A stretch of DNA of 63,606 nt, counting the filler, from Candidatus Sysuiplasma jiujiangense (lineage in GTDB: Archaea > Thermoplasmatota > Thermoplasmata > Sysuiplasmatales > Sysuiplasmataceae): assembly GCA_019721075.1 (NCBI GenBank). It is 4 parts of 4 records of this genome, joined end to end, with 100 filler letters (N's around TTAATTAATTAA, not from the genome) between each part and the next. Parts side by side here need not be neighbours in the genome. Positions count along the whole stretch, not along the records: positions 52,681 to 63,606 come from JAHEAD010000030.1; 3 more parts are not named here. One strand, 5' to 3'. The notes below the pieces were generated by a model. It had not been told where the DNA came from and ran no database searches. It saw nothing but the letters and a program-made list of their open reading frames with translations. The position numbers were made by a program, and so were the translations under genes. This document shows, one piece after another, positions 18,678 through 63,606 of this stretch. Within the stretch, counting starts at the first letter, position 1. The number at the start of each line of letters is the position of its first letter.

Positions 18678-18777
18678 NNNNNNNNNNNNNNNNNNNNNNN
18701 NNNNNNNNNNNNNNNNNNNNNTTAATTAATTAANNNNNNNNNNNNNNNNNNNNNNNNNNNNNNNNNNNNNNNNNNNN
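18678..18777. other. Artificial contig spacer
   Basis: N-run containing TTAATTAATTAA. Confidence 0.99.
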
Positions 18778-36653: not shown

Positions 36654-36753
36654 NNNNNNNNNNNNNNNNNNNNNNNNNNNNNNNNNNNNNNNNNNNNTTA
36701 ATTAATTAANNNNNNNNNNNNNNNNNNNNNNNNNNNNNNNNNNNNNNNNNNNN
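36654..36753. other. Artificial contig spacer
   Basis: N-run containing TTAATTAATTAA. Confidence 0.99.
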
Positions 36754-52580: not shown

Positions 52581-52680
52581 NNNNNNNNNNNNNNNNNNNN
52601 NNNNNNNNNNNNNNNNNNNNNNNNTTAATTAATTAANNNNNNNNNNNNNNNNNNNNNNNNNNNNNNNNNNNNNNNNNNNN
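52581..52680. other. Artificial contig spacer
   Basis: N-run containing TTAATTAATTAA. Confidence 0.99.
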
Positions 52681-52779
52681 AAAAAAAAATAAAAAAAGAG
52701 ATTGTGTGTGTAAAGATTTATATGCTACCATGCATTGTCATGTTATCCCTGGGACAGGGGATGAGGAAATGAAAATGGA
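52681..52779 (+). repeat. Left terminal inverted repeat (99 bp) containing TATA box, SD and start codon
   Basis: Exact reverse complement of 63508-63606. Confidence 0.95.
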
Positions 52780-52942
52780 TGATAAAGAAGAAGTTAAATC
52801 AAGATGGAAAATAACAAATTATGATGGGTTCGTTGTAATAGAATATTCAGGTTTTTATGGTTCTCAATTTCTCACGTTATTCGATTATGATCTTGATGAT
52901 CTTATAGATTACATTGAACAGTATAGGGAGGCTGGGTTCTGA
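52769..52942 (+). CDS. Small acidic protein starting inside the ITR
   Basis: SD plus ATG within the ITR. Confidence 0.65.
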   Translation: MKMDDKEEVKSRWKITNYDGFVVIEYSGFYGSQFLTLFDYDLDDLIDYIEQYREAGF

Positions 52943-53229
52943 TGGCATGCAAATGTAGACATGAAGCAGTTGATCATGCTTACGATGACAAAACAGCAAT
53001 AGACCCTCGCTTTCCCTGTAAGAAATGCGAATGCCTCGATTATGACATGGCACCTAAAGAAGCATATAAATTTCTTGTTAGGTGGTTGACCGCTTCCTTT
53101 ATTGTTGAATTTCTAGACCTAACCGTATGGCAGAATGTAAATTTTGTTACTCTTTTAGAATTGGATTTTGTTACGTGCCTTACATTGATAATTATAATTG
53201 ATTATATCATGGCACTATGGTTAGCATGA
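52942..53229 (+). CDS. Cys/His-rich small protein with hydrophobic C-terminus
   Basis: CKCRH...H...CKKCEC; TGATG coupling. Confidence 0.55.
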   Translation: MACKCRHEAVDHAYDDKTAIDPRFPCKKCECLDYDMAPKEAYKFLVRWLTASFIVEFLDLTVWQNVNFVTLLELDFVTCLTLIIIIDYIMALWLA

Positions 53230-53245
53230 TTAAATTGGAGGTGAT

Positions 53246-53283
53246 AATGGATCGGTGGACAAGGAAGAAAATACCGATCCATT
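53246..53283. terminator. 11-bp hairpin between the convergent genome arms
   Basis: AATGGATCGGT / ACCGATCCATT. Confidence 0.45.
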
Positions 53284-53310
53284 TCACAAAAATATATTTA
53301 TTTGGAATAT

Positions 53311-53508
53311 TTAAGGTTTTGGAACAATGGCCTGTTCTGATGCCAGGGCATTACTGATAAAGTGTTTCCCGAAGTATGCACTTATCCCTGCCATCACTGC
53401 ATAACCGATTGCCATTTTTATTGAATCACCTGACATTATCAGGTAATCTCCAACTACTATGGCAGCCCCCATCGCTGATTCTACTTTTGTTAGACTATAT
53501 TTAGGCAT
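53311..53508 (-). CDS. Small two-TM protein (holin-like topology)
   Basis: Two hydrophobic segments; GGAGG SD. Confidence 0.6.
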   Translation of the reverse strand: MPKYSLTKVESAMGAAIVVGDYLIMSGDSIKMAIGYAVMAGISAYFGKHFISNALASEQAIVPKP

Positions 53509-53510
53509 TC

Positions 53511-53702
53511 TTATACTACCTCCTTCTTGATATCCTCTTTAACCTTATTAACTTCTTCTTTTACCTTGTTTTCTGCGGGTTCGTTTTCCCTGGGCTTGGA
53601 TGCTTCTTCCAGTGCCTTTTCAAGTCTTGTGATCCTTTCATCTAACCTATTCTTTACTTCGTTCAGTTCTTGTTTCATTCTTTTTTCATGTAGATATCCC
53701 AT
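53511..53702 (-). CDS. Small coiled-coil protein
   Basis: ORF track; TAATG coupling. Confidence 0.65.
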   Translation of the reverse strand: MGYLHEKRMKQELNEVKNRLDERITRLEKALEEASKPRENEPAENKVKEEVNKVKEDIKKEVV

Positions 53703-53905
53703 TACTTTCGCCTCATCTTTTTTAATGTTCGTGCAAGGGTGATCTCTTTCTCCCTTGTCTTTTCATTGTGTTTCCTTGCGAATCCCATTGCTTTCCGGAG
53801 ATTGATATCACCGTTAACATCCATGAAATTGTGTTCCTTTGCCCATTTTTCAAGTTTGCCCCTGTGATTCTCTGGAATGGCTTTCCTGATCCATTGCTTG
53901 TTCAT
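53702..53905 (-). CDS. Small basic protein, putative virion DNA-binding
   Basis: WIRKAI...GKL...LARTLKKMRRK. Confidence 0.65.
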   Translation of the reverse strand: MNKQWIRKAIPENHRGKLEKWAKEHNFMDVNGDINLRKAMGFARKHNEKTREKEITLARTLKKMRRK

Positions 53906-54069
53906 TTTAACACCACTATGATTATACTGGTAAATGAGATTATCATGGATCCAATTAACCCGATCAGGTAACCTTTGTTCATTTGCTTTGCTTGTTTCAT
54001 TTCTTTTAAGGATTCTTTGATCCATTTTATATCTGTTTTCAGTTCTGATATGTCCTGTTCAACTGTCAT
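53902..54069 (-). CDS. Coiled-coil protein with C-terminal TM
   Basis: DISELKTDIKWIK followed by a TM. Confidence 0.65.
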   Translation of the reverse strand: MTVEQDISELKTDIKWIKESLKEMKQAKQMNKGYLIGLIGSMIISFTSIIIVVLK

Positions 54070-54070
54070 T

Positions 54071-55483
54071 TTAAACCGCCTCCACTTCCACTGTGCCAAT
54101 GGTAGCGTTTGTTACTACCAGTTCATAATACCATCCTGCTGGGACTACCATGTCATAAGTAAGGATTTGACCGTCTGCTGCTGTTAATCCTGATGGTAAG
54201 CTTACCTTTGTTGATGTTGTTACAGTGGATGTGGATGATATCCCTGTTGCAAGGGTAGCCGCTGCTGATGTTGATGGATTATACGTTATGGGTATTTTTA
54301 ATCTTATGCCATATGGATTGGTGTTCTGATAGACTGTTCCACTGACTGGGGGATTGGCTATTAAGGTCGTATCTACAAAGTCTTGAGGATATACCTTGCC
54401 TATATTTATTAGGCCATAGACATTTGTGCCATTATTGTTCGCTATTCCAATGTTTAAACTTGCAAGTACTGGACTACTGGCTTCGTGCCACACACCAATA
54501 TAAATTGGAGATGCTGGATTAATATTGTTTTGTATATAGTATTTTACTGTTCCACCGTATGGTGATGTTCTGTCTGCTACTTGTATTTTCCCTATCCAAA
54601 GCATTGAAGTTAAATTTGTATTTGCGTTATATATTGATATTTCACATGCCCCTATAGCTGCTTGCACTATATTCATATCATGTGTCAGATCGCTAGTGCT
54701 TATTCCATTTACACAACTTTCTATCTGTAAGTAATTGATATGCATGTGTTCTCCTGATAATATTCCGTTATAAAATCCACCAATACTAATAAGACCTGCA
54801 TAAGAAATCTCGCATCCCATTTGCGGAAACTTTATGCCTGTTGCTGGTGAAACTGGTGTATCAATATGATTTGGTTGAGTGAATATATTATCAAATATAC
54901 ATGTCATATCATAGCTGAAATCTATTGCAGATATACCCGTAGCACCTGAATACGGAACTACTGCAAGGTTTAAAAGAGATATTTCAACACCATTAAAACC
55001 GGCTGAACTTGAACCGTTCGCATCTATAACAGATTGATATGTCTCTGTCAATGTTGTTGTTCCGTCATATATTACTGTTCCATTTTCAGAGTATTCTCCA
55101 AGTTGTTCCTGTGTTCCAGAACCTTCTATGATTATTGGTACTTGCTTAGTTGTATATGCTATAAAAGGAAACATAATCTTGGAATAACGTGTTGAATCAG
55201 TGTTTGCCAGTAAGGGTGCATTTGTAAGGTCATAAAATCCCGGCATAATTTTTATTTTTCCGCCATTCTGTGAATAAACATAATTTATTGCGTCCATTAT
55301 ACCTAATGTCTGTGTCTTTAATGTGCTGACATAATCTGCTTTTGTTGGGACATTAACCAGTCTCTTACCGCCATTGATTACATATCCATTAGAATCAACG
55401 ATTATTTTCCCTGTGTCCTGATCGTAAACCATTGGCTGGGGGTTTCCGTTGCTGTCTGTTGGTTGTTGAACAATTACGGTCAT
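54071..55483 (-). CDS. Spike/receptor-binding protein (beta-helix-like)
   Basis: GIMDAINYV...GGKIKIMPG...IIIEGSG; C-terminal VPAGWYY domain. Confidence 0.7.
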   Translation of the reverse strand: MTVIVQQPTDSNGNPQPMVYDQDTGKIIVDSNGYVINGGKRLVNVPTKADYVSTLKTQTLGIMDAINYVYSQNGGKIKIMPGFYDLTNAPLLANTDSTRYSKIMFPFIAYTTKQVPIIIEGSGTQEQLGEYSENGTVIYDGTTTLTETYQSVIDANGSSSAGFNGVEISLLNLAVVPYSGATGISAIDFSYDMTCIFDNIFTQPNHIDTPVSPATGIKFPQMGCEISYAGLISIGGFYNGILSGEHMHINYLQIESCVNGISTSDLTHDMNIVQAAIGACEISIYNANTNLTSMLWIGKIQVADRTSPYGGTVKYYIQNNINPASPIYIGVWHEASSPVLASLNIGIANNNGTNVYGLINIGKVYPQDFVDTTLIANPPVSGTVYQNTNPYGIRLKIPITYNPSTSAAATLATGISSTSTVTTSTKVSLPSGLTAADGQILTYDMVVPAGWYYELVVTNATIGTVEVEAV

Positions 55484-56238
55484 CCCAAATTCACCTCGAT
55501 GTATGAGATGTATGCGGTTACAGTAGCAGATTCTCCTCCAATGAGTAATGATAACAGTTCATTTGAAAATACTTCAAATCCTCCAGTAACCATTTGTTCT
55601 GTTACCTCTGCCCCTTCAATGTCAGTAGCAGATCGTGATTGAACATATTTTGCCAGATCGACAACATACGTATAGTCCGCTGTAGTGGAAACAGATGCAA
55701 ATAATAGATTAAGTGATTCCGATACATCAGTTGATACCGCACCACTCGGATATATTTGCACCTGAGGGGTATCTGTGCCTGTTGCACCGGCTTGCCATCT
55801 CATGACGATACTCCTTAAAATCCATTTTTTACCTGATGGTGGACTCATTGTTATACCAACATCCCCTGTAAAGGTATTGGATACGGTTACTGGTGTTCCT
55901 GTTTCCTGTGTATAGATAAATCCTGACTGGTAATCGATATCAATGTAAGGTATGCCGGATGCCGTTGTTTTTACGATGTAAGATATGATAACATTGTAAC
56001 TGTTTGAATCGGAAAATGTTATCGAACCAACCTGAACATCCTTTAATATGACTTTTGCCGGCACTGTAAGGGTAATGGGATTTTCTGTTACATTGTTTCC
56101 TTCTGTATCGGTTATTGATATGGACTGGTTTATTGTTTGGTTTTGAATGGAAATTATCATATCATAGTATGATCCTTGTGTATTCCTAAATGAAACCGTT
56201 GATGTGGAACTTGTTGTTTTTACTTTTGGATTAAACAT
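55480..56238 (-). CDS. Beta-rich virion protein (penton/turret candidate)
   Basis: S/T/V/I-rich; located before the spike gene. Confidence 0.55.
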   Translation of the reverse strand: MFNPKVKTTSSTSTVSFRNTQGSYYDMIISIQNQTINQSISITDTEGNNVTENPITLTVPAKVILKDVQVGSITFSDSNSYNVIISYIVKTTASGIPYIDIDYQSGFIYTQETGTPVTVSNTFTGDVGITMSPPSGKKWILRSIVMRWQAGATGTDTPQVQIYPSGAVSTDVSESLNLLFASVSTTADYTYVVDLAKYVQSRSATDIEGAEVTEQMVTGGFEVFSNELLSLLIGGESATVTAYISYIEVNLG

Positions 56239-56244
56239 TTCATA

Positions 56245-56640
56245 TCACCTTATCGCAATTACAAGGGCAATAATAGCTATTGCTACAATTACAATGACTA
56301 TGATCCATAAATCTTTCTGCAGTCCAGAAAAGAAATTATTGATTGGGCCCCACATATCATTCCCTATACCACCAAAGAAATTTGAAATACCTGAACCAAG
56401 CGCACCGATACCGCCTTCGATTCCACTGCCTATACTCGAAAATGTTGACCCTGCTGCACTGCCAACGGCATTAGCTGCCCCAGTCAATGCACCGGCTGTA
56501 TCATTGGCTGCTGTGCCAAGCCCATTATAAACCCCTGATCCAACTGATGAGATGCCCTGGGATAGACTGGATGCCCCTGAACTTATTGCGTTCCCTGCAC
56601 CCTCGATACTTGATATTATTTGACTAAATGGCCACGTCAT
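56245..56640 (-). CDS. Gly/Ser-rich membrane-anchored virion protein
   Basis: MTWPFSQI start; C-terminal TM. Confidence 0.75.
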   Translation of the reverse strand: MTWPFSQIISSIEGAGNAISSGASSLSQGISSVGSGVYNGLGTAANDTAGALTGAANAVGSAAGSTFSSIGSGIEGGIGALGSGISNFFGGIGNDMWGPINNFFSGLQKDLWIIVIVIVAIAIIALVIAIR

Positions 56641-57161
56641 TTTATCACCATGAATCCAACTATGAGAGCAATTATTGCTACAATGATTATAATGTACACT
56701 GGAATCCCAAGGATTTTATATGAAAGAAAGCCAACCGGACTCTCAGAGCTTGTAACAATTGATGGATTTGTCGGTACTGTCTTTGGTGATCCCATAGATG
56801 TAACTGCGTGAGATTTTGTTTTAAGTAATGATATCCCGCTTCCAATCCCTGAAAATGATTCGATTGATCCAACTGTTCCGTTGACAATCTCTCCAGCACC
56901 GGAATTGATAACCTTTCCTAAACTTTTTGCATCGTTACCAACTCCCGAGAAAACACCATTTCCATAAGCACCTATTCCCTGTTCAATTTTCTTAAGAGAA
57001 CTGTTCATCCCTGAAACTGTATTATTTACATCTCCAACAAGTCCAGAATAGATTTTTGATCCAGAAGAATCTATACCCTGAGCTATGGCTGCACCGCCTG
57101 TTGCTACAGTGTGCCCTATACTCTCTGCACCTGACACAATTTGGCTAAAAGGCCATGACAT
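56637..57161 (-). CDS. Gly/Ser-rich membrane-anchored virion protein
   Basis: MSWPFSQI start; C-terminal GIPVYIII...GFMVIK. Confidence 0.75.
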   Translation of the reverse strand: MSWPFSQIVSGAESIGHTVATGGAAIAQGIDSSGSKIYSGLVGDVNNTVSGMNSSLKKIEQGIGAYGNGVFSGVGNDAKSLGKVINSGAGEIVNGTVGSIESFSGIGSGISLLKTKSHAVTSMGSPKTVPTNPSIVTSSESPVGFLSYKILGIPVYIIIIVAIIALIVGFMVIK

Positions 57162-57175
57162 TTAAATCATACCCC

Positions 57176-57241
57176 TTAGAACAGAACCAGAACTGCCAGT
57201 GCAATTATCGCTACAATTAAGATTATCTCCAAGGTACTCAT
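57176..57241 (-). CDS. 21-aa single-TM microprotein MSTLEIILIVAIIALAVLVLF
   Basis: Hand-translated; ATGA overlap with the upstream gene. Confidence 0.6.
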   Translation of the reverse strand: MSTLEIILIVAIIALAVLVLF

Positions 57242-57462
57242 TTTATCACCATGAACCCAATTATAAGAGCAATTATTGATATTACGATTATGATATACAC
57301 TGGAATCCCGAAAACTTGTTTTTTCAGGAAACTTTCAGTTGATGAAACTATTGATGAAGTCATTGGAACTGGTTGAGTTGTGTTCCCACTTGTAGTTGTT
57401 CCGAAAATGGAAGAAAGGGAAGAAAATATTGACTGTCCCTGATAGTAGTTACCTGATCCCAT
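57238..57462 (-). CDS. Small membrane protein
   Basis: C-terminal GIPVYIII...GFMVIK. Confidence 0.75.
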   Translation of the reverse strand: MGSGNYYQGQSIFSSLSSIFGTTTSGNTTQPVPMTSSIVSSTESFLKKQVFGIPVYIIIVISIIALIIGFMVIK

Positions 57463-58379
57463 TAGAACATCACCATCTTAAGGGTACTAAGGTATCCAGA
57501 TTCTGATGTATTGACTTTCAGGTTTATGGATTTGTTCAGGACTGGATTTGACAGGTTCAAAAGGTCGTTTGGATTTTCGTCTGACATGAACTGTTGAAGT
57601 GCGAATCCTGTGTCCGGTGTTCTTCCATATTCTGACTGATTGTCTGACTGTAACGTGTTAAAATAGTCTTCAAACAACGAAATATTGTTATTGACAATTA
57701 AATCCATGTAGTTGATAAGGGAATTTGAGCCGTTTGCTGAATAAATGGGTGCTGTCTGACTTGTGTATGCAAAATGGAGAAGTCCCTGGTAAAATGCATC
57801 TGTTGACAAATAATTTGTCAGGTCATTATCGCCTGTGATACTCAAAGTAGCCGCAACTTTCAACATTTTATATTTGAATAACTTGAAATCCACACTTGAT
57901 CTGGATATATCTCTCTCGGTCAGATACAGGGTTGAACCGGTTGTACCAGTTGGTGATCCTGACGTTACTTGGGAAAGCGGTGGAAGGGTAACTTTCATGG
58001 TGTTATTGACAAATGCGTAACTCGGAAATGCTGTCTCTTTGATATAGGTTTTCTTGCTGAAATCAAGGGCTGTCATTGGAATCTTGAATTGTGTTCCAAC
58101 CATGCTTGATACATTTCTTACTAATCTGCGAAGTTCATTGAGTTGTGGAACATCTGCGGAAACCATGGTCTCGTTATCGGCCTCGATTTTTACAGAGGAA
58201 ACCAACGGGTTCAGATAAGTGTCAGTAAAAGCCGGACTTGTTCCGCCGCTGAGAGTTCCAGGCACGATAACTAAATCGTATGCTGTTACTAAATCTGTAT
58301 TTTTCAGGGTTATATCTATGGTTGACCCCCAATCACTATCAATATTCACGGTACTGTATTTATGACTTATTTTTACCAT
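57462..58379 (-). CDS. Major capsid protein, probable double jelly-roll
   Basis: 305-aa beta-rich protein near the A32-like ATPase and before membrane proteins; own TATA box. Confidence 0.65.
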   Translation of the reverse strand: MVKISHKYSTVNIDSDWGSTIDITLKNTDLVTAYDLVIVPGTLSGGTSPAFTDTYLNPLVSSVKIEADNETMVSADVPQLNELRRLVRNVSSMVGTQFKIPMTALDFSKKTYIKETAFPSYAFVNNTMKVTLPPLSQVTSGSPTGTTGSTLYLTERDISRSSVDFKLFKYKMLKVAATLSITGDNDLTNYLSTDAFYQGLLHFAYTSQTAPIYSANGSNSLINYMDLIVNNNISLFEDYFNTLQSDNQSEYGRTPDTGFALQQFMSDENPNDLLNLSNPVLNKSINLKVNTSESGYLSTLKMVMF

Positions 58380-58399
58380 AATACTAATATTTCAGTAGA

Positions 58400-58407
58400 T
58401 TATATAA
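58400..58407 (-). promoter_or_regulatory. TATA box for a probably leaderless capsid operon transcript
   Basis: TTATATAA about 21 nt upstream of the ATG; no SD. Confidence 0.6.
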
Positions 58408-58454
58408 GGATTACTATTTTCTTGGTAATTGATAAATTAATAGTAGATACTTAA

Positions 58455-58643
58455 TTATGGGTAAATAACTTCTTTCAGGTCTTTAATCAGGTCTTGGAAT
58501 TTCAGTTCCAGGTCAATGTCATTATTAGGATCACTAAAATAATCATCCAATTTCGATTTTGCTATCCCCTTGATCCATTTTGGGATCAACAGGCCATCTA
58601 AATTTTTCACTGATTGACGATATAAAAATTCCTTGTAATTCAT
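58455..58643 (-). CDS. Hypothetical protein
   Basis: ATGA coupling to the ATPase gene. Confidence 0.65.
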   Translation of the reverse strand: MNYKEFLYRQSVKNLDGLLIPKWIKGIAKSKLDDYFSDPNNDIDLELKFQDLIKDLKEVIYP

Positions 58644-59242
58644 TGTACAATCTCCAGCCTATCAGTTTGTAAATTCAATTTGACAATGTATCTTTCCTCG
58701 CTATCAAATTCATACTGGAAAAATTGATACTTCTCAAGATGTGGAATAATCTTCTCACTGTCAGGGATATACTCTCCCAAATATTGGACATCATTGGGTA
58801 ACGTTGTCTTGGGAATGAAGATATGATGGGAATTATACAGTAACTGTTTATGGATATTGTTTGCACGTCTAAAAAGGAACATACATCCCATGCCCTTGTG
58901 TCTTCCCCTGATTATGAGATCATAAATGGGCATTGGTAGTTTTGATTGACTTATCAATACGTCAGCATCCTCAAAAACAATCATACCGGAATTGTTTGAT
59001 TCGATAAATGCGGATATTTTTCTCTCATATCCGGAAAAATAATCTTCAAGTCCTTTCGTCTTATAGATAACCGCATTTTCAAATTCATTCTTGGAATATT
59101 CACTATTGACATCCATTATGAGTATTGGATATTCTGATTTATCCATTTGCCTCAAAAAGTGTTTAGCGATTTCACTTTTACCTGAACCTCTCTTTCCCAA
59201 TATACAGAAAATGTCAGTAACGTTAATTTCCATCTGAAACAC
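58640..59242 (-). CDS. A32-like (FtsK/HerA) genome packaging ATPase
   Basis: GKRGSGKS, IVFEDAD, IRGRHKG. Confidence 0.85.
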   Translation of the reverse strand: MFQMEINVTDIFCILGKRGSGKSEIAKHFLRQMDKSEYPILIMDVNSEYSKNEFENAVIYKTKGLEDYFSGYERKISAFIESNNSGMIVFEDADVLISQSKLPMPIYDLIIRGRHKGMGCMFLFRRANNIHKQLLYNSHHIFIPKTTLPNDVQYLGEYIPDSEKIIPHLEKYQFFQYEFDSEERYIVKLNLQTDRLEIVQ

Positions 59243-59816
59243 CGCTACCTATTGATTGATAAACCTCTGATGGCTTGGTTTCTTTGCGTCCCTGTTCAAC
59301 CTTTCGTTTCTTCTCCTCTAGATCCAACTTCCTGGATTCATTTTCCAATTCGATTTTTTCGGCTTGGGCTTTTAGAACCCTTGTCAAATGTGGGAATAAC
59401 ATAGAAATTACATATTGGACAACAACAATGATCTTAGGCATCTCATACAATTCTGCAAGTTGCTTTGAAGATGATTCTATAAATTCCTGTTCAGTGTTCT
59501 TTAGTTCCTTGTCCTTGTGTACCTGTAAAGTCAGTTTTTCAATACTCACTGACATCTTGGCAAAAGCTTCCGGATTCAGGGGAATCCGGTCTGTTCCTTT
59601 TTTCTTTGACTTCTTCGCTGGGGGCTTTTTGATATCTTCCTTTACAATCTTCTTATTGTCTTTGTTATCTTCTTGTTCCTGTTCCTTGGGTGATTCTTCA
59701 AGGGACAGATCGGGATCGTCTATCTTATCAGATTCAGGGTTATCTTCATTCTTGACCTGTTCTTCTTTTTTCTTCTTACGATATTCCCTTTGCCATGCTG
59801 CCTTGTCAAAACTCAT
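59223..59816 (-). CDS. Charged hypothetical protein
   Basis: 197-aa ORF coupled to neighbours. Confidence 0.7.
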   Translation of the reverse strand: MSFDKAAWQREYRKKKKEEQVKNEDNPESDKIDDPDLSLEESPKEQEQEDNKDNKKIVKEDIKKPPAKKSKKKGTDRIPLNPEAFAKMSVSIEKLTLQVHKDKELKNTEQEFIESSSKQLAELYEMPKIIVVVQYVISMLFPHLTRVLKAQAEKIELENESRKLDLEEKKRKVEQGRKETKPSEVYQSIGSGVSDGN

Positions 59817-59947
59817 TTCCCGAATCCCCCCATACTCATAGCCATACTCAAAATCTGTTTAACCTTGGGTGCATCCTTTTTGCACACTCCAAATAACTCC
59901 TCACATGGTGATTTCAATTCTTCATTGCATAAAATACAATTACTCAT
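59813..59947 (-). CDS. Small Cys-containing protein
   Basis: MSNCILC...C...GVC; start uncertain. Confidence 0.5.
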   Translation of the reverse strand: MSNCILCNEELKSPCEELFGVCKKDAPKVKQILSMAMSMGGFGK

Positions 59948-59981
59948 AAATGAGTAGTGATTAAAAGTATATAAATTATCT

Positions 59982-60335
59982 TCAATGTTTGTATCTGTTT
60001 TTCCATTCCCTTGTTTCACGGTCATAATCTTCATGGCATTTTTCACATTGTAAAATATAAGATAATGGATGGTTAACAATGTCATAAATCCTTTCCGGTA
60101 ATCCCCTTCCCAATCCTTTTAAATTTGATGGGAAACCATGGCGATGTGAAAACTGTAAGTCAGAATCATGATGACAGTATGACTGGAACTGGAACTGGAA
60201 TCGTAAATCTTCCATCTGCAAAGTAAATCTTCTTTGTCTTGGGAATCCATTAAACATTCTTAAGGAATTTAAATTAAATGAAAATGAGAAATCAGCGATA
60301 ACCTGATCTCCCTTGATGATTATTGGATTCCTCAT
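59982..60335 (-). CDS. Hypothetical protein
   Basis: TAATG coupling; CxxC near the C-terminus. Confidence 0.55.
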   Translation of the reverse strand: MRNPIIIKGDQVIADFSFSFNLNSLRMFNGFPRQRRFTLQMEDLRFQFQFQSYCHHDSDLQFSHRHGFPSNLKGLGRGLPERIYDIVNHPLSYILQCEKCHEDYDRETREWKNRYKH

Positions 60336-60496
60336 TAATAGCCCTCTTTGGCTATCCTTTGTAATGCCGTGTACACATCATGCCAGTATTGTTCACCTTC
60401 CTTGGTACGATCCCATCGGAATCCACCCAATATCATGACAGCCAATTTTTCTGCAATCTCTCGTTCCACTTTATACATTCCTTTTATTTCGTTCAT
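60335..60496 (-). CDS. Small protein (53 aa) with FRWDRTKEGEQYW motif
   Basis: Hand-translated; coupled at both ends. Confidence 0.65.
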   Translation of the reverse strand: MNEIKGMYKVEREIAEKLAVMILGGFRWDRTKEGEQYWHDVYTALQRIAKEGY

Positions 60497-60624
60497 CTTT
60501 TATCACCATTATAATTATGTTTTCCAATGTGCCTCAATCTCTCATGGTAAGGAATGATATCATGACACTTTTGGCACTCATAGGTATCATCACCACACTG
60601 TTTATACCATCCTCTATAGTTCAT
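60493..60624 (-). CDS. C2H2 zinc-finger microprotein
   Basis: YECQKC...RLRHIGKH. Confidence 0.6.
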   Translation of the reverse strand: MNYRGWYKQCGDDTYECQKCHDIIPYHERLRHIGKHNYNGDKR

Positions 60625-60625
60625 G

Positions 60626-60856
60626 TTAATCAATCTCCCACAAACCAATAGCAGCCCCAAATAACAATGTGAATACAATTATATCTGTAAAAGCAAAGAG
60701 GATAAAAACCATGATAAATACAATGATATAGGCAACAAGGTATGAAACAGAACCTGATAGTGCAGATTCAAAGAATCCGTGCAAAAGGATATACTCGCCC
60801 CACATAATGACACCAATAGTAGCCAGTGCCAACACACTCAATATTTTATTAATCAT
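60626..60856 (-). CDS. Small membrane protein
   Basis: 2-3 hydrophobic segments. Confidence 0.65.
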   Translation of the reverse strand: MINKILSVLALATIGVIMWGEYILLHGFFESALSGSVSYLVAYIIVFIMVFILFAFTDIIVFTLLFGAAIGLWEID

Positions 60857-61266
60857 TGAATCATCATCTCCGATATGTCAATCCAAGGGCCAACCTTATA
60901 GACCACACCATTTTTAACTTTCATCTCAAAGATTCTGTTAATTTCTTCTTCACCTTGGATGGCTAATCTTCTTAGGTCAATTCCCATTCTCCAGGGATCA
61001 TCGTGCAGTAATGCACGTACCTTAAACTGATCCAATACTGACATTTCAGACGGTACAATCAATCTCAAGTGCACGTTGCCTGATGATGATTTCCTATACC
61101 ATAAAGGAAGAAGAATGTTCAAATATTCCTTTCCCTGATATTTCAACAAAATATCAATTACATATTTCCAGTTCTCCTTGATGTACTCAAATGTTCTGGA
61201 TTTTTTGAATTGTCTAAAATTCTGATCTATATCAATGTACAGCTCTTTATATTGCATTGTTATCAT
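60853..61266 (-). CDS. Minimal AEP (primase-polymerase)-like protein
   Basis: YIDID (DxD), KSSSGNVH (SxxxxxH), LHDDPWR. Confidence 0.55.
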   Translation of the reverse strand: MITMQYKELYIDIDQNFRQFKKSRTFEYIKENWKYVIDILLKYQGKEYLNILLPLWYRKSSSGNVHLRLIVPSEMSVLDQFKVRALLHDDPWRMGIDLRRLAIQGEEEINRIFEMKVKNGVVYKVGPWIDISEMMIQ

Positions 61267-61873
61267 ACCTCTTTTTCTTTTCTTCTCTTTGTATTCTCCT
61301 CATCTCTTTTCTCCTCTCATATTCCTTTGTCCTATCCCCATGATGTGATACCCCTGGCTTGTTCTTGGGCCCTGCAGGGTGCAATTCACTATTGATCTTA
61401 TCATAGAGATCATTATACGCTTTGCTTTGACTTATCACCTTTCCCTTGTTACCATATAATTCCTCACGAAAATTTATAGTAATTGTTTTGTCGCTATCAC
61501 TATCTGGATCAGGGAACATCATCAAACCCTTTGCATTTAAATAATCATTGATCTGTTCCGCTATTTTCTCTTTATCTCGTGTACTTCTAATGTAAAATTC
61601 ACTGTACACACTCTTAGCGGTATGGCTTCTCGAATCTGTTACCACATTTCCTGATACCACGATCTGCATCTTCTTTGATTTCTTCACTGGGGGCTTTTTT
61701 GGTTTCAACTTACCCAGTGGTTTCCGTTTACCATGATGTCCTCTTAGTTGTGATAATGATGCCCTTGGATAACTCTTATGCTCCCTTTGTATTCTTTCTG
61801 TGTACTCATTCTTGTAATTGTGGGCTGCTTTCCATTCACTGTATGTTCTAAATTTTGGTGAGAATCTAGTCAT
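61247..61873 (-). CDS. Basic protein (terminal-protein or DNA-binding candidate)
   Basis: K/R-rich; SLSQLRGH motif; adjacent to the AEP-like gene. Confidence 0.6.
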   Translation of the reverse strand: MTRFSPKFRTYSEWKAAHNYKNEYTERIQREHKSYPRASLSQLRGHHGKRKPLGKLKPKKPPVKKSKKMQIVVSGNVVTDSRSHTAKSVYSEFYIRSTRDKEKIAEQINDYLNAKGLMMFPDPDSDSDKTITINFREELYGNKGKVISQSKAYNDLYDKINSELHPAGPKNKPGVSHHGDRTKEYERRKEMRRIQREEKKKRYDNNAI

Positions 61874-62087
61874 AGACTCTCACCGCTTTTATATTTGTTA
61901 TCATGATATATTCTGTAGAATACTCATTTTTCAGGGTTAAAACACCCTTTTTTACCTCGGTTACGTGTCCTGTGTAGGGTTTATAAGTTCCTTCAACAAG
62001 TATGGATACCCGATTCCTATTCTCCAATGCGTCCACAAGTATAACATTCCAGGGACTCTCAAACATGCTACCATACTTGTCATTCAA
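61866..62087 (-). CDS. Sm/Hfq-like small beta-barrel protein
   Basis: VSILV...YTGHV...LTL...YIMITNIKAV. Confidence 0.55.
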   Translation of the reverse strand: MNDKYGSMFESPWNVILVDALENRNRVSILVEGTYKPYTGHVTEVKKGVLTLKNEYSTEYIMITNIKAVRVYD

Positions 62088-62331
62088 ATACGGACACCCT
62101 TTTAATGTCGATGATCCTCATGGTAGTACTGTACCTTTCCCCGTCCTCTGTCTCCGAAGACAAGGTGATCGAACCGTGCTGAATCCCTGAAATGTACCCT
62201 GAGACCCCTTTATATGTCCCGGATGCAAAGATATTGACCTTTTTTCCATCCTTAAACGCTTTCTGCAATTGTGACCTGATTGTAAGGGCTGCCTCCTGTT
62301 TTTCCTCTCTCTTATCAATTTTATCTGTCAA
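62080..62331 (-). CDS. Sm/Hfq-like small beta-barrel protein
   Basis: GKKVNIF...VSGYI...ITL...IIDIKRV. Confidence 0.55.
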   Translation of the reverse strand: MTDKIDKREEKQEAALTIRSQLQKAFKDGKKVNIFASGTYKGVSGYISGIQHGSITLSSETEDGERYSTTMRIIDIKRVSVFE

Positions 62332-62515
62332 CTTTGGACACCTCTAATTCTTCCATGGATGCAATCATCCCTGATTGTATCGTAACCTGTCTTCCATTAT
62401 CAAGGTATAACAGTACTGTTCCCTTTGAAAGTTGTTTTACTGTGCCTGTGTACTGTCCACCTGTACGTAAGCGGACATGTACCCTCTTTTCCATCATTCC
62501 TGTATCTATTTTCAT
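62321..62515 (-). CDS. Sm/Hfq-like small beta-barrel protein
   Basis: KRVHVRLRTGGQYTGTV...VLL...VTI...IASM. Confidence 0.6.
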   Translation of the reverse strand: MKIDTGMMEKRVHVRLRTGGQYTGTVKQLSKGTVLLYLDNGRQVTIQSGMIASMEELEVSKVDR

Positions 62516-62538
62516 TCTTTCACCATAAAAAATTGGGA

Positions 62539-62898
62539 TTAGGATTTAATTCCCACGATGAACAGCCCAATATTTTTCCTCTTTCCGGACTTTGTTTCAA
62601 ACAGTCTTTCCTCTCTTTTCACGGTTATAGATTTCCCAAAGAGTTCATCAAAGGTTTTAAATCCTTCATCCTTGAGAAAACCAATATTTGTCCGGTTCAA
62701 AACCATACCAACTTCTTGACCTTCCAAACCTTTCAGAATTAACATGGGTTTGATTCCATCCTCAAAGTTCCTGTCTTCCTCTGATATCACTTTGTACTTT
62801 CTTTCCTCACCAAATTCCCAATCGGATGCCCTCAAAAATTCGACACCTGAATTTAGGTAGTCCTCTATTCCTTTTCTTTTTTCGCTTTCCATTTTCAT
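62539..62898 (-). CDS. Putative OB-fold/SSB-like protein
   Basis: FLRASD...VLNRTN...GKSITV; AGGTGA SD before MKMES. Confidence 0.45.
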   Translation of the reverse strand: MKMESEKRKGIEDYLNSGVEFLRASDWEFGEERKYKVISEEDRNFEDGIKPMLILKGLEGQEVGMVLNRTNIGFLKDEGFKTFDELFGKSITVKREERLFETKSGKRKNIGLFIVGIKS

Positions 62899-62917
62899 TT
62901 CACCTATTCCGGTCTCT

Positions 62918-62976
62918 TGGCCGGCAGACATCCCTTGGGATGTTTCGACCCCAGCCACGGGGTCATCGTCAGTGCC
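62918..62976 (-). ncRNA. Type I hammerhead ribozyme
   Basis: GGCA-CUGACGA-U-GACCCC(GUGGCU)GGGGUC-GAAA-CAUCCC(AA)GGGAUG-UC^UGCC. Confidence 0.85.
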
Positions 62977-63105
62977 TTAATTCACCTGTATACTTACCTG
63001 TTGTTGGAAATGCCCACAAGACCATATCGGTACACAAAATTCCGTGAAGGTCTCACTGTATATGGGTGCACCGCATATTTTACATTCTCCTATTTTTGTC
63101 TGCAT
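62977..63105 (-). CDS. Zn-ribbon microprotein (42 aa)
   Basis: Hand-translated MQTKIGECKICGAPIY...WSCGH; AGGTGGA SD. Confidence 0.6.
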   Translation of the reverse strand: MQTKIGECKICGAPIYSETFTEFCVPIWSCGHFQQQVSIQVN

Positions 63106-63106
63106 T

Positions 63107-63220
63107 TTAATCCACCTGACATCCACATTTTCTACAGTACCATTCCTCATTTTGCATGTTCATGTAAATCCCTTCGGGATCACATGCACACTGACAATCC
63201 TTTAAGCAATGATTACACAT
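63107..63220 (-). CDS. Cys-rich microprotein (37 aa)
   Basis: Hand-translated MCNHCLKDCQCAC...WYCRKCGC; GAGGT SD. Confidence 0.6.
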   Translation of the reverse strand: MCNHCLKDCQCACDPEGIYMNMQNEEWYCRKCGCQVD

Positions 63221-63227
63221 GTTACCT

Positions 63228-63518
63228 CTACTCCCCATGCATAGGAACTATTTCCCTAAAAACTATATCCAAGGTTCTTTCATTCCATCTACAGACAAAA
63301 ATCTTAATGAACCTCAAACCTATTTTTTCCATGCTACTTATCAGCACATTAAACACACTGGCCGGAAGTCCAACTCCCTCTTTGTCATGCTGATATTCAA
63401 TAATGATCCAATCATGTTTTCCCGATGTATAATCAAAATGGTATCCAATATCATCTTGAATATCTACCAACACTTCCTCTATTCTCCTATTCTTCTCTTG
63501 TTCGTTTTCCATTTTCAT
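63228..63518 (-). CDS. Hypothetical protein starting inside the right ITR
   Basis: SD plus ATG within the ITR. Confidence 0.65.
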   Translation of the reverse strand: MKMENEQEKNRRIEEVLVDIQDDIGYHFDYTSGKHDWIIIEYQHDKEGVGLPASVFNVLISSMEKIGLRFIKIFVCRWNERTLDIVFREIVPMHGE

Positions 63519-63606
63519 TTCCTCATCCCCTGTCCCAGGGATAACATGACAATGCATGGTAGCATATAAATCTTTACACACACAATCTCTTTTTTTATTT
63601 TTTTTT
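63508..63606 (-). repeat. Right terminal inverted repeat (99 bp)
   Basis: Exact reverse complement of 52681-52779. Confidence 0.95.

Follow-up and report, generated by a model that had tools for sequence, protein, structure and literature searches.

Hammerhead ribozymes of phages and prophages were surveyed in 2011 by Perreault et al. (PMC3088659), whose text describes pseudoknots in all three hammerhead types, polycistronic prophage RNAs with gene-flanking hammerheads and native fragments of about 2 kb that cleave, and which already contained archaeal examples. According to the same text, the hammerhead of the haloarchaeal viruses HF1/HF2 lies 13 nt before the start codon of an early helicase gene, and a transcript 5′ end has been mapped no more than 3 nt from the cut. 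The core tolerates one additional nucleotide between A9 and G10.1 in the (+) hammerhead of chrysanthemum chlorotic mottle viroid (CChMVd) and in those of Penelope-like elements (PMC3705267, PMC4209133), and exchange of A10 to U raised the trans-cleavage rate of the CChMVd ribozyme 3–4 fold (PMC3705267). Here we describe a candidate hammerhead ribozyme at positions 62976–62923 (minus strand) of a 63,606-nt stretch of DNA, hereafter the window, assigned to the archaeon Candidatus Sysuiplasma jiujiangense (GCA_019721075.1). The 63.6 kb window consists of contigs C17, C18, C19 and C24 of one 55-contig, 2.29 Mb genome, joined by paired runs of N at 18678–18777, 36654–36753 and 52581–52680, and features are not readable across these joints.

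The candidate has its core, junction, predicted pseudoknot contact and between-gene position in an operon in common with the type I hammerheads of prophages and phages in the text of the 2011 survey, and tandem copies likewise occur among its relatives. Unlike those prophage cases, its putative carrier is a small virus from the bin of an acid-mine archaeon, with inverted terminal repeats (ITRs) and probably a coat of the double-jelly-roll kind. This comparison concerns the survey's text, and the subfamily with an extra U and a UGGC:GCCA knot may already be present in its alignments. The hammerhead of HF1/HF2 (HHphage), as described there, resides, as the candidate probably does, in an archaeal virus with a linear double-stranded DNA genome; however, it depends on high salt and is atypical in having 2 nt inserted near C3 and stem I, whereas the candidate combines a consensus core with a benign extra U and belongs to another type of virus in a non-halophilic, acidophilic setting. 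The nucleotide inserted in CChMVd and Penelope-like elements occupies the same core position as in the candidate, but those are a viroid and a eukaryotic retroelement with other peripheral contacts and an unrelated context. A literature search for hammerheads in archaeal viruses found none in a small, linear, ITR-bearing virus of acid-mine type. The remark in a preliminary description of this locus that hammerheads are rarely reported from archaeal viruses is a fair one, yet the text of the survey shows that the HF1/HF2 case was already published in 2011 (PMC3088659).

From the sequence comparisons below, the candidate appears to be a genuine type I hammerhead, of a widespread though sparsely catalogued phage-type subfamily, that would be transcribed in the operon of a probably archaeal linear virus and cut itself, a reading that we hold with a probability of roughly 0.8. 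Three lines of evidence speak for its identity as a hammerhead, namely its membership in the family, covariation and compensatory variants found in nature.

Sequence and predicted structure of the ribozyme

Read on the minus strand, the element runs GGCA-CUGACGA-U-GACCCC-GUGGCU-GGGGUC-GAA-ACAUCCC-AA-GGGAUGU-C-UGCC, followed by GGCCA, and spans 62976–62923 as a complete type I hammerhead. All elements that define the class at the sequence level are present, namely core positions C3–A9, G12–A14, A15.1–U16.1 and H17 and three helices, with stems of 4 (I), 6 (II) and 6–7 bp (III) around the core and stem I as the open helix of the type I topology, an arrangement in which RF03152 and model R1 (below) also align the sequence. 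The CUGACGA, GAAA and GUC core and the three stems that had been described before agreed base for base with this span. The parts are as follows.

62973..62976, minus strand: 5′ strand of stem I (GGCA), directly after the upstream UAA stop; found in the minimum free energy (MFE) and centroid folds
62966..62972, minus strand: catalytic core C3–A9 (CUGACGA, N7 = C), aligned to the cores of RF03152 and of model R1 (below)
62965, minus strand: extra U between A9 and G10.1, invariant in a 64-sequence family alignment
62947..62964, minus strand: stem II (GACCCC/GGGGUC) with loop II GUGGCU (62958–62953), from sequence and fold; natural variants keep the pairing
62944..62946, minus strand: G12, A13 and A14, without variants among contigs of 4 runs
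62928..62943, minus strand: stem III hairpin with A15.1–U16.1 (ACAUCCC AA GGGAUGU), from sequence and fold
62926..62927, minus strand: predicted cleavage site 3′ of C17 (62927), the 3′ product beginning at U62926, from hammerhead numbering
62923..62926, minus strand: 3′ strand of stem I (UGCC), from sequence and fold
62918..62922, minus strand: 3′ strand of the putative pseudoknot (GGCCA), pairing with loop II UGGCU; the equivalent helix of the family covaries

In stem II, G62964–C62959 pair with G62952–C62947, and G62964–C62947 closes the stem as G10.1–C11.1. A62943 pairs with U62928 (A15.1–U16.1), and C62927 represents H17. The AA loop of stem III is only 2 nt long, so the innermost C–G pair is forced open and a CAAG loop results. 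The single extra U that had been noted after A9 is indeed there (U62965), and loop II is complementary to the nucleotides 3′ of stem I as proposed, U62957–U62953 facing G62922–A62918 in 5 pairs that include one G·U. Folded in isolation, the 54-mer adopted the three-way junction in both MFE and centroid structures (−22.5 kcal/mol, z −2.13; 4 of 200 shuffled sequences were as good).

The frequency of such motifs by chance was low. In 300 first-order Markov windows with the same dinucleotide statistics, no motif appeared at stem lengths of at least 6/6/4 bp, compared with 0.01 motifs per window at 4/4/4 and 0.1 at 3/3/3. A descriptor scan of both strands of the whole 2.29 Mb genome, with the core, an optional extra base and three stems, gave 10 loose motifs at 3/3/3, among which the candidate alone has all stems of at least 4 bp.

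A family of pseudoknotted hammerheads with an extra U

Relatives were retrieved from IMG/VR with a pattern (CTGANGATGACC-N6-20-GGTCGAAAC) that combines the core of the candidate with the outer portion of its stem II and matched at least 117 stretches, mostly complete hammerheads by inspection and by scanner; among the matches listed, the scanner recognized 87 type I hammerheads, 69 of them distinct. Five rows with a spurious-looking stem III or I (L008, L038, L069, one of two L074 solutions and L078) were dropped, which left an alignment of 64 sequences (A1). The U after A9 was invariant in A1, the G10.1–C11.1 and C15.2–G16.2 pairs were shared with the candidate, stem I comprised 4–5 bp, mostly CCGC/GCGG, and the loop II segment was usually (U/C)GGC, the complement of a GCCA located 5–6 nt after the cut. 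On these sequences, the subfamily is marked by four traits: the additional U that follows A9, a stem II of 6 bp, a stem I of 4–5 bp and a loop II pseudoknot with the nucleotides just 3′ of stem I. The predicted pseudoknot of the candidate is spaced 1 nt shorter, nearer to the cut, than in most relatives.

Across A1, 89.9% of the cells were paired, against 30–43% when the partners were slid. The pseudoknot helix, which had not been used in selection, was paired in 81%, and all four of its pairs (4/4) changed on both sides; its spellings in relatives included UGGC:GCCA, UGAGAC:GUCUC, UUGAC:GUCAA, UGGUU:AACCA and GUGGA:UCCAC.

A covariance model built from the 64 viral-contig sequences, the candidate excluded (model R1), had one match in the window, the candidate itself, over model positions 1–85 of 85 with 50.7 bits (rough E 1.6e-15), and this was also its sole match in the whole genome. 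Because 20 of the scored positions are fixed by the retrieval pattern, the score was calibrated on sequences that carry only the pattern. The same pattern matched 100 stretches in one-genome-per-species prokaryote contigs, many of them coding sequence or chance matches; the pattern-only sequences scored 17.7–39.6 bits and 33 true hammerheads (32 loci) 45.7–79.3 bits, the range within which the candidate falls. All 23 of the titled loci with at least 45 bits in these species-representative genomes were bacterial, and no family member was detected in 150 other genomes of the host's class.

A second pattern, in which the core, the length of stem II and the loop GUGGCU were fixed and the sequence of stem II was left free, matched 17 metagenome stretches; 15 of these were hammerheads with at least 50 bits, in eight spellings of stem II, and by eye an AGCCA partner of the loop was present in most of them. 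A pattern specific to C24 (stem I GGCA plus loop GUGGCU) had no match in JGI metagenome contigs or IMG/VR. The placement of the family, between genes of phage and prophage operons, resembles that of the candidate: by crude calls of open reading frames (ORFs), an upstream ORF stops 0–20 nt before the ribozyme in 44 of the 64 sequences of A1, and the next start follows the cut at a median of 32 nt, compared with 28 nt in the candidate.

Several further observations were made during these searches. Tandem family copies, with 2–3 hammerheads 0.3–1 kb apart and each before a short gene, occur at L063, L068, L090, L198, L232 and L239, in agreement with the published view that hammerheads divide long prophage transcripts into pieces of gene size (PMC3088659). 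On viral contigs, a type III topology with the extra-U core and a GACC/GGUC stem II was seen by eye at L006, L008, L011, L012, L017, L022 and others; in this form GUC is followed by the stem I hairpin, ahead of the core. About 16 pattern matches, counted by eye, represent an FtsK/SpoIIIE coding motif (ELADLMMT...EVET) with R1 scores of up to 39.6 bits (L121, L127, L130, L140, L141, L149, L152, L153, L155, L158, L161, L182, L183, L191, L195 and L212), which makes this motif a source of false positives for pattern-based ribozyme hunts. Four weak R1 matches (21–22 bits) in genomes of the host's class were rejected for lack of the CUGANGA core. The sole archaeal title among the prokaryote-contig pattern matches, a Methanolobus metagenome-assembled genome (L174; 23.5 bits), has no stem III or GUC and is not a hammerhead.

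Natural variants

The ribozyme stretch occurs in DNA runs of six studies, labelled as metagenomes of mine tailings, of mine drainage and of sediment; no RNA run was among those listed for it. Variant contigs with at least 80% likeness to the stretch were compared for 4 runs from 4 studies; rare variants are invisible in this comparison because contigs, not reads, were compared. A C>U change at 62968 affects N7, the one free position of the core, and C>U changes at 62962 and 62959 each convert a C–G pair of stem II to U·G. In one contig stem II was fully swapped yet complementary (GGGAUC/GAUCCC for GACCCC/GGGGUC), with the loop, core and stem I strand unchanged. Runs X7 and X10 carried an insertion of GC behind 62936 that turns CCC-AA-GGG of stem III into CCC-GCAA-GGG, with a GCAA loop. 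The contigs of the 4 runs contained no change at C3, U4, G5, A6, G8, A9, G12–A14, A15.1, U16.1 or C17. Since the changes lie at N7 or preserve pairing, the pattern is that expected under selection for a catalytic fold, not for a mere hairpin. Several variant contigs aligned only over about 62919–62978 and diverged on both flanks, so the ribozyme is retained where its surroundings are not.

Location in the operon of a putative virus

The contig that bears the ribozyme, C24, occupies window positions 52681–63606 (10,926 nt) and has a GC content of 37.8%, compared with a median of 49.5% in the bin. The ITRs reported earlier were recovered at both exact ends of the contig, each of 111 nt and 95% complementary to the other, with an inward TATA-like box.

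52681..52791, strand not applicable: left ITR of C24, from terminal repeat comparison
63496..63606, strand not applicable: right ITR of C24, with the TATA-like box TTTATATG / aaagaTTTATATG at 63570–63563 (minus strand), facing the operon
58640–59242, minus strand: HerA/FtsK-type packaging ATPase (Pfam and PHROG)
57462–58379, minus strand: P2-like coat protein, weak (Pfam, sub-threshold)

The TATA-like box is present in the left ITR too, and both boxes face inward; we take it to be a plausible promoter, by the consensus of the archaeal B recognition element (BRE) and TATA box. The genes of C24 are nearly all on the minus strand with overlapping ends, which together with the inward-facing box makes a long, ITR-proximal polycistronic transcript a reasonable assumption. 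The packaging ATPase is of the DUF87/HerA type (Pfam E 1.2e-7; phrog_2666 E 8e-21), and the coat-like protein showed a weak, sub-threshold match to the C-terminal domain of PM2 coat protein P2 (E 0.0011). Look-alikes of the two proteins in a protein atlas were viral ATPases and clusters of P2/P3-type coat proteins, for which no host domain was indicated. Together these features tentatively suggest that C24 is a complete linear genome and probably that of a small virus of the double-jelly-roll kind, without a tail. Neither protein had relatives in IMG/VR, and searches with the coat-like protein among phage records and in 400 other genomes of the phylum gave no match. A comparison of C24 ORFs with the flanks of the hammerhead relatives gave no match, apart from two negligible tblastn matches of 17–18 amino acids (aa).

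The immediate neighbourhood of the ribozyme on C24 comprises the following features.

62977..63150, minus strand: upstream ORF of 57 aa with CxxC motifs, whose stop codon (62979–62977) abuts stem I
62890..62905, minus strand: Shine-Dalgarno sequence AGGUGA (62905–62900) and in-frame AUGs at 62898 and 62892, from sequence
62539..62898, minus strand: downstream ORF of 119 aa, first gene of the predicted 3′ cleavage product, from the ORF call
62909..62924, minus strand: predicted hairpin CCGG (62924–62921)/CCGG (62912–62909), −5.9 kcal/mol, not better than shuffled sequences

The ribozyme follows the upstream stop codon by 0 nt, and the predicted cut lies 28 nt before AUG 62898; the coordinates of the stop codon, cleavage site and start codon in the preliminary description were all right. 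AGGUGA fits the 3′-terminal sequence of the 16S rRNA in the bin (GAUCACCUCCU), at a spacing of 1 nt to AUG 62898 and 7 nt to the in-frame AUG 62892; the second AUG may be the true start, since a 7-nt spacing is more usual. The claim that the ribozyme fills the only gap of the operon stands as long as the chain of minus-strand genes is followed over its first ~4.5 kb, in which the gap of the ribozyme (78 nt) compares with 23 nt for the next largest, but not further down, where gaps of 75, 76 and 45 nt occur. Neither flanking ORF had a Pfam or PHROG match, and a search of IMG/VR with the downstream ORF gave one weak locus (L001), which is without a hammerhead.

Other features of the contig were recorded as well. 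Three consecutive small ORFs of 64, 83 and 73 aa at window 61866–62515 (minus strand) resemble paralogues; one matches DUF6897 (E 2.9e-7), and the others show weak YolD/LapA matches. A 72-nt direct repeat with 88% identity (window 56637–56708 and 57238–57309) lies over the 3′ ends of two ORFs on the minus strand and thereby gives both a common hydrophobic C-terminal segment. The start of the ORF that follows the ribozyme, with its ribosome-binding site and initial codons (GAAAUGAAAAUGGAAA; MKME...), recurs at the first ORF inside each ITR (window 62878–62901 versus 63498–63521 and 52754–52777; 92% over 24 nt), so that three genes have one common start cassette.

Alternative explanations

Several results weigh against the identification of a self-cutting type I hammerhead in this operon. 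The search with Rfam hammerhead models that the preliminary description had proposed as a check came out negative: Rfam 15 reported no family at gathering in the window, the hammerhead families RF00163, RF00008, RF02275-7 and RF03152 included, and a search of 501 nt at E ≤ 10 likewise gave no hammerhead. The best hit, on 106 nt, was RF03152 (RAGATH-1-hammerhead) with 12.9 bits against a gathering threshold of 56.3 (E 5.6), and Hammerhead_1 (RF00163) was not reported even below threshold. By the Rfam criterion the candidate is hence not a member of either family, its scores being far below gathering, although its core and helices align with theirs position for position (with RF00163 by way of the relative L005), and the sub-threshold RF03152 alignment places its core and stems I and III correctly. 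This failure is weak evidence against a hammerhead, because all 20 of the viral-contig relatives tested were also below gathering and L005, a clear relative, received just 13.0 bits from Hammerhead_1, whose gathering threshold is 34. In a context of 101 nt, the MFE structure swapped stem I for other pairings and its energy was unremarkable (z −1.31); loss of stem I is expected there, since a 4-bp stem I relies on the pseudoknot, which the folding program does not model. Stem I has just 4 bp, the predicted pseudoknot contains a G·U pair and has the shorter spacing, and the 2-nt loop of stem III may be a deletion variant of the GCAA form. Stems I–III of A1 were partly picked for pairing by the scanner, which is why the pseudoknot is the informative part of the covariation. 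Finally, 20 of the bases scored by R1 are fixed by the candidate-derived pattern, and only about 11 bits, those above the pattern-only ceiling, are independent.

The resemblance to the hammerhead consensus could be a product of chance in an intergenic region, as the absence of a significant Rfam match and the nine other loose 3/3/3 motifs in the genome might suggest; we consider this very improbable in view of 0/300 random windows at these stem lengths, of 50.7 bits with the family model where pattern-only sequences reach at most 39.6, and of the compensatory natural variants. The element might instead descend from a hammerhead and no longer cleave usefully, now serving only as a spacer with structure, such as a 3′ stabiliser of the upstream genes or a brake on translational coupling. 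The short stem I, a pseudoknot with a G·U pair and no spacer, and the 2-nt stem III loop where X7 and X10 have the GCAA form would all suit such a descendant, and inactive hammerhead-like RNAs have been published (legend of Figure S7 in PMC3088659). However, all conserved core positions are intact, the variants change N7 or keep pairing, and a stem I of 4–5 bp is the norm of the family, which makes loss of useful cleavage a rather improbable account. A true hammerhead may also reside in the wrong genome, if C24 is a bacterial phage mis-binned with an archaeal genome and the ribozyme an ordinary phage hammerhead. The low GC content of C24 relative to the bin points in this direction, as do the exclusively bacterial titles of genomes with family hammerheads (23/23, compared with 0/150 genomes of the host's class) and the lack of a match to the coat-like protein in 400 other genomes of the phylum. 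A virus with a GC content below that of its host is common. A short blastn comparison of the bin with C24 found no match resembling a CRISPR spacer, only one 39-nt match of 90% on C29, in the region of a shared domain, and four 18-mers.

Against mis-binning, the bin is 97% complete with 1.8% contamination, and its small-subunit (SSU) rRNA is archaeal (RF01959, 1497 bits, best of the clan). mcrA was not found in the bin, and a search for archaeal amoA was uninformative, its control matching nowhere. A further indication comes from the largest protein of C24 (470 aa), whose last 94 aa match the end of a 597-aa protein, encoded beside tatC on contig C33, at 74% identity and a paralogue on contig C29 at 42%.

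54071–54352 of the window, minus strand: 94-aa C-terminus of the 470-aa ORF, matching L221:2630-2902 and L222:2942-3199

Partial homologues of the 597-aa protein occur in two further genomes of this archaeal class and in none of nine (0/9) from the same family; the shared domain is possibly host-derived or receptor-related and would then tie the virus to its host. In addition, the sole match of the ATPase among 50,697 phage records was Sulfolobus turreted icosahedral virus 2 (STIV2), although the match was weak (E 6e-4, 20.7% identity over 90% of the query), and the TTTATATG box in the ITR looks archaeal. The virus is accordingly probably archaeal on these indications, and a mis-binned phage is an unlikely alternative explanation of C24. 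The earlier designation as an archaeal virus is thus probable from the SSU rRNA, the STIV2 match of the ATPase and the 94-aa domain in the bin, but not proven.

A possible refolding hairpin after cleavage

Among the relatives in A1 (L002–L118), the 20 nt after the cleavage site allow a second pairing of stem I's 3′ strand, with a 4-mer a little further downstream, so that the pseudoknot strand comes to lie in the intervening loop (GCGG...CCGC, GUGG...CCAC, AUGG...CCAU, GCAG...CUGU and GGCA...UGCC). Such a hairpin starts within 2 nt of the new 5′ end in 57 of the 64 sequences, compared with 22.6 ± 3.3 in shuffled tails; for distinct tails at offset 0, the count was 32 of 46 against 11.2 ± 2.6 (maximum 20 in 500 shuffles). 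When the 4-mer was swapped in from another sequence, the hairpin was kept in 95 of 368 cases. These counts do not depend on alignment register, and support for the hairpin comes from this register-free test alone. A fixed-column test on an ungapped MAFFT alignment was not significant, with 60.3% paired and 185 of 500 shuffles as high; because of this result and of the relatedness of the sequences, the hairpin is treated as a lead. The analogous CCGG/CCGG hairpin of the candidate starts at offset 2 and is incompatible with stem I and the pseudoknot at the same time. CCGG...CCGG was kept, with different loops, in the loose ends of two variant contigs.

A speculative reading, to which we give a minor share of belief, is that the family, the candidate included, forms a "cut-and-refold" device in both bacterial and archaeal viruses, in which a hairpin at the new 5′-OH end would block religation, shield the mRNA and leave the ribosome-binding site free.

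Proposed mechanism and significance

From this arrangement we infer transcription from the ITR, cleavage and an effect on the fate of the mRNA. Transcription would start in the ITR and run along the long minus-strand operon; as soon as the polymerase has completed stem I's 3′ strand and the GGCCA tail, the junction would fold, with the pseudoknot locking stems I and II side by side, and the RNA would cut itself between C62927 and U62926, about 0.6 kb from the start of the transcript. The 5′ piece of about 0.6 kb would contain three small ORFs, the second and third with CxxC pairs, and end in a 2′,3′-cyclic phosphate behind the folded stems II and III. All the remaining operon would form the 3′ piece, which would begin with a 5′-OH at U62926, a small hairpin and a free Shine-Dalgarno sequence, the next start codon following 28–34 nt on. 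As a likely consequence, the stability and translation of the two pieces would become independent of each other.

The analysis adds a well-supported hammerhead to a type of virus that is small, linear and ITR-bearing, probably with a double-jelly-roll coat and an acid-mine archaeal host. The thresholds of Rfam 15 miss a common subfamily of phage hammerheads, so that ribozymes of this sort will escape the automatic annotation of viral genomes. If the tentative cut-and-refold device is real, one RNA device would operate in bacterial and archaeal viruses, through either cross-domain spread of a module of about 70 nt or convergence on one structural optimum, and the refolding could explain how such ribozymes help the downstream message. 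The candidate offers a testable case of ribozyme-based operon processing in what is probably an archaeal virus.

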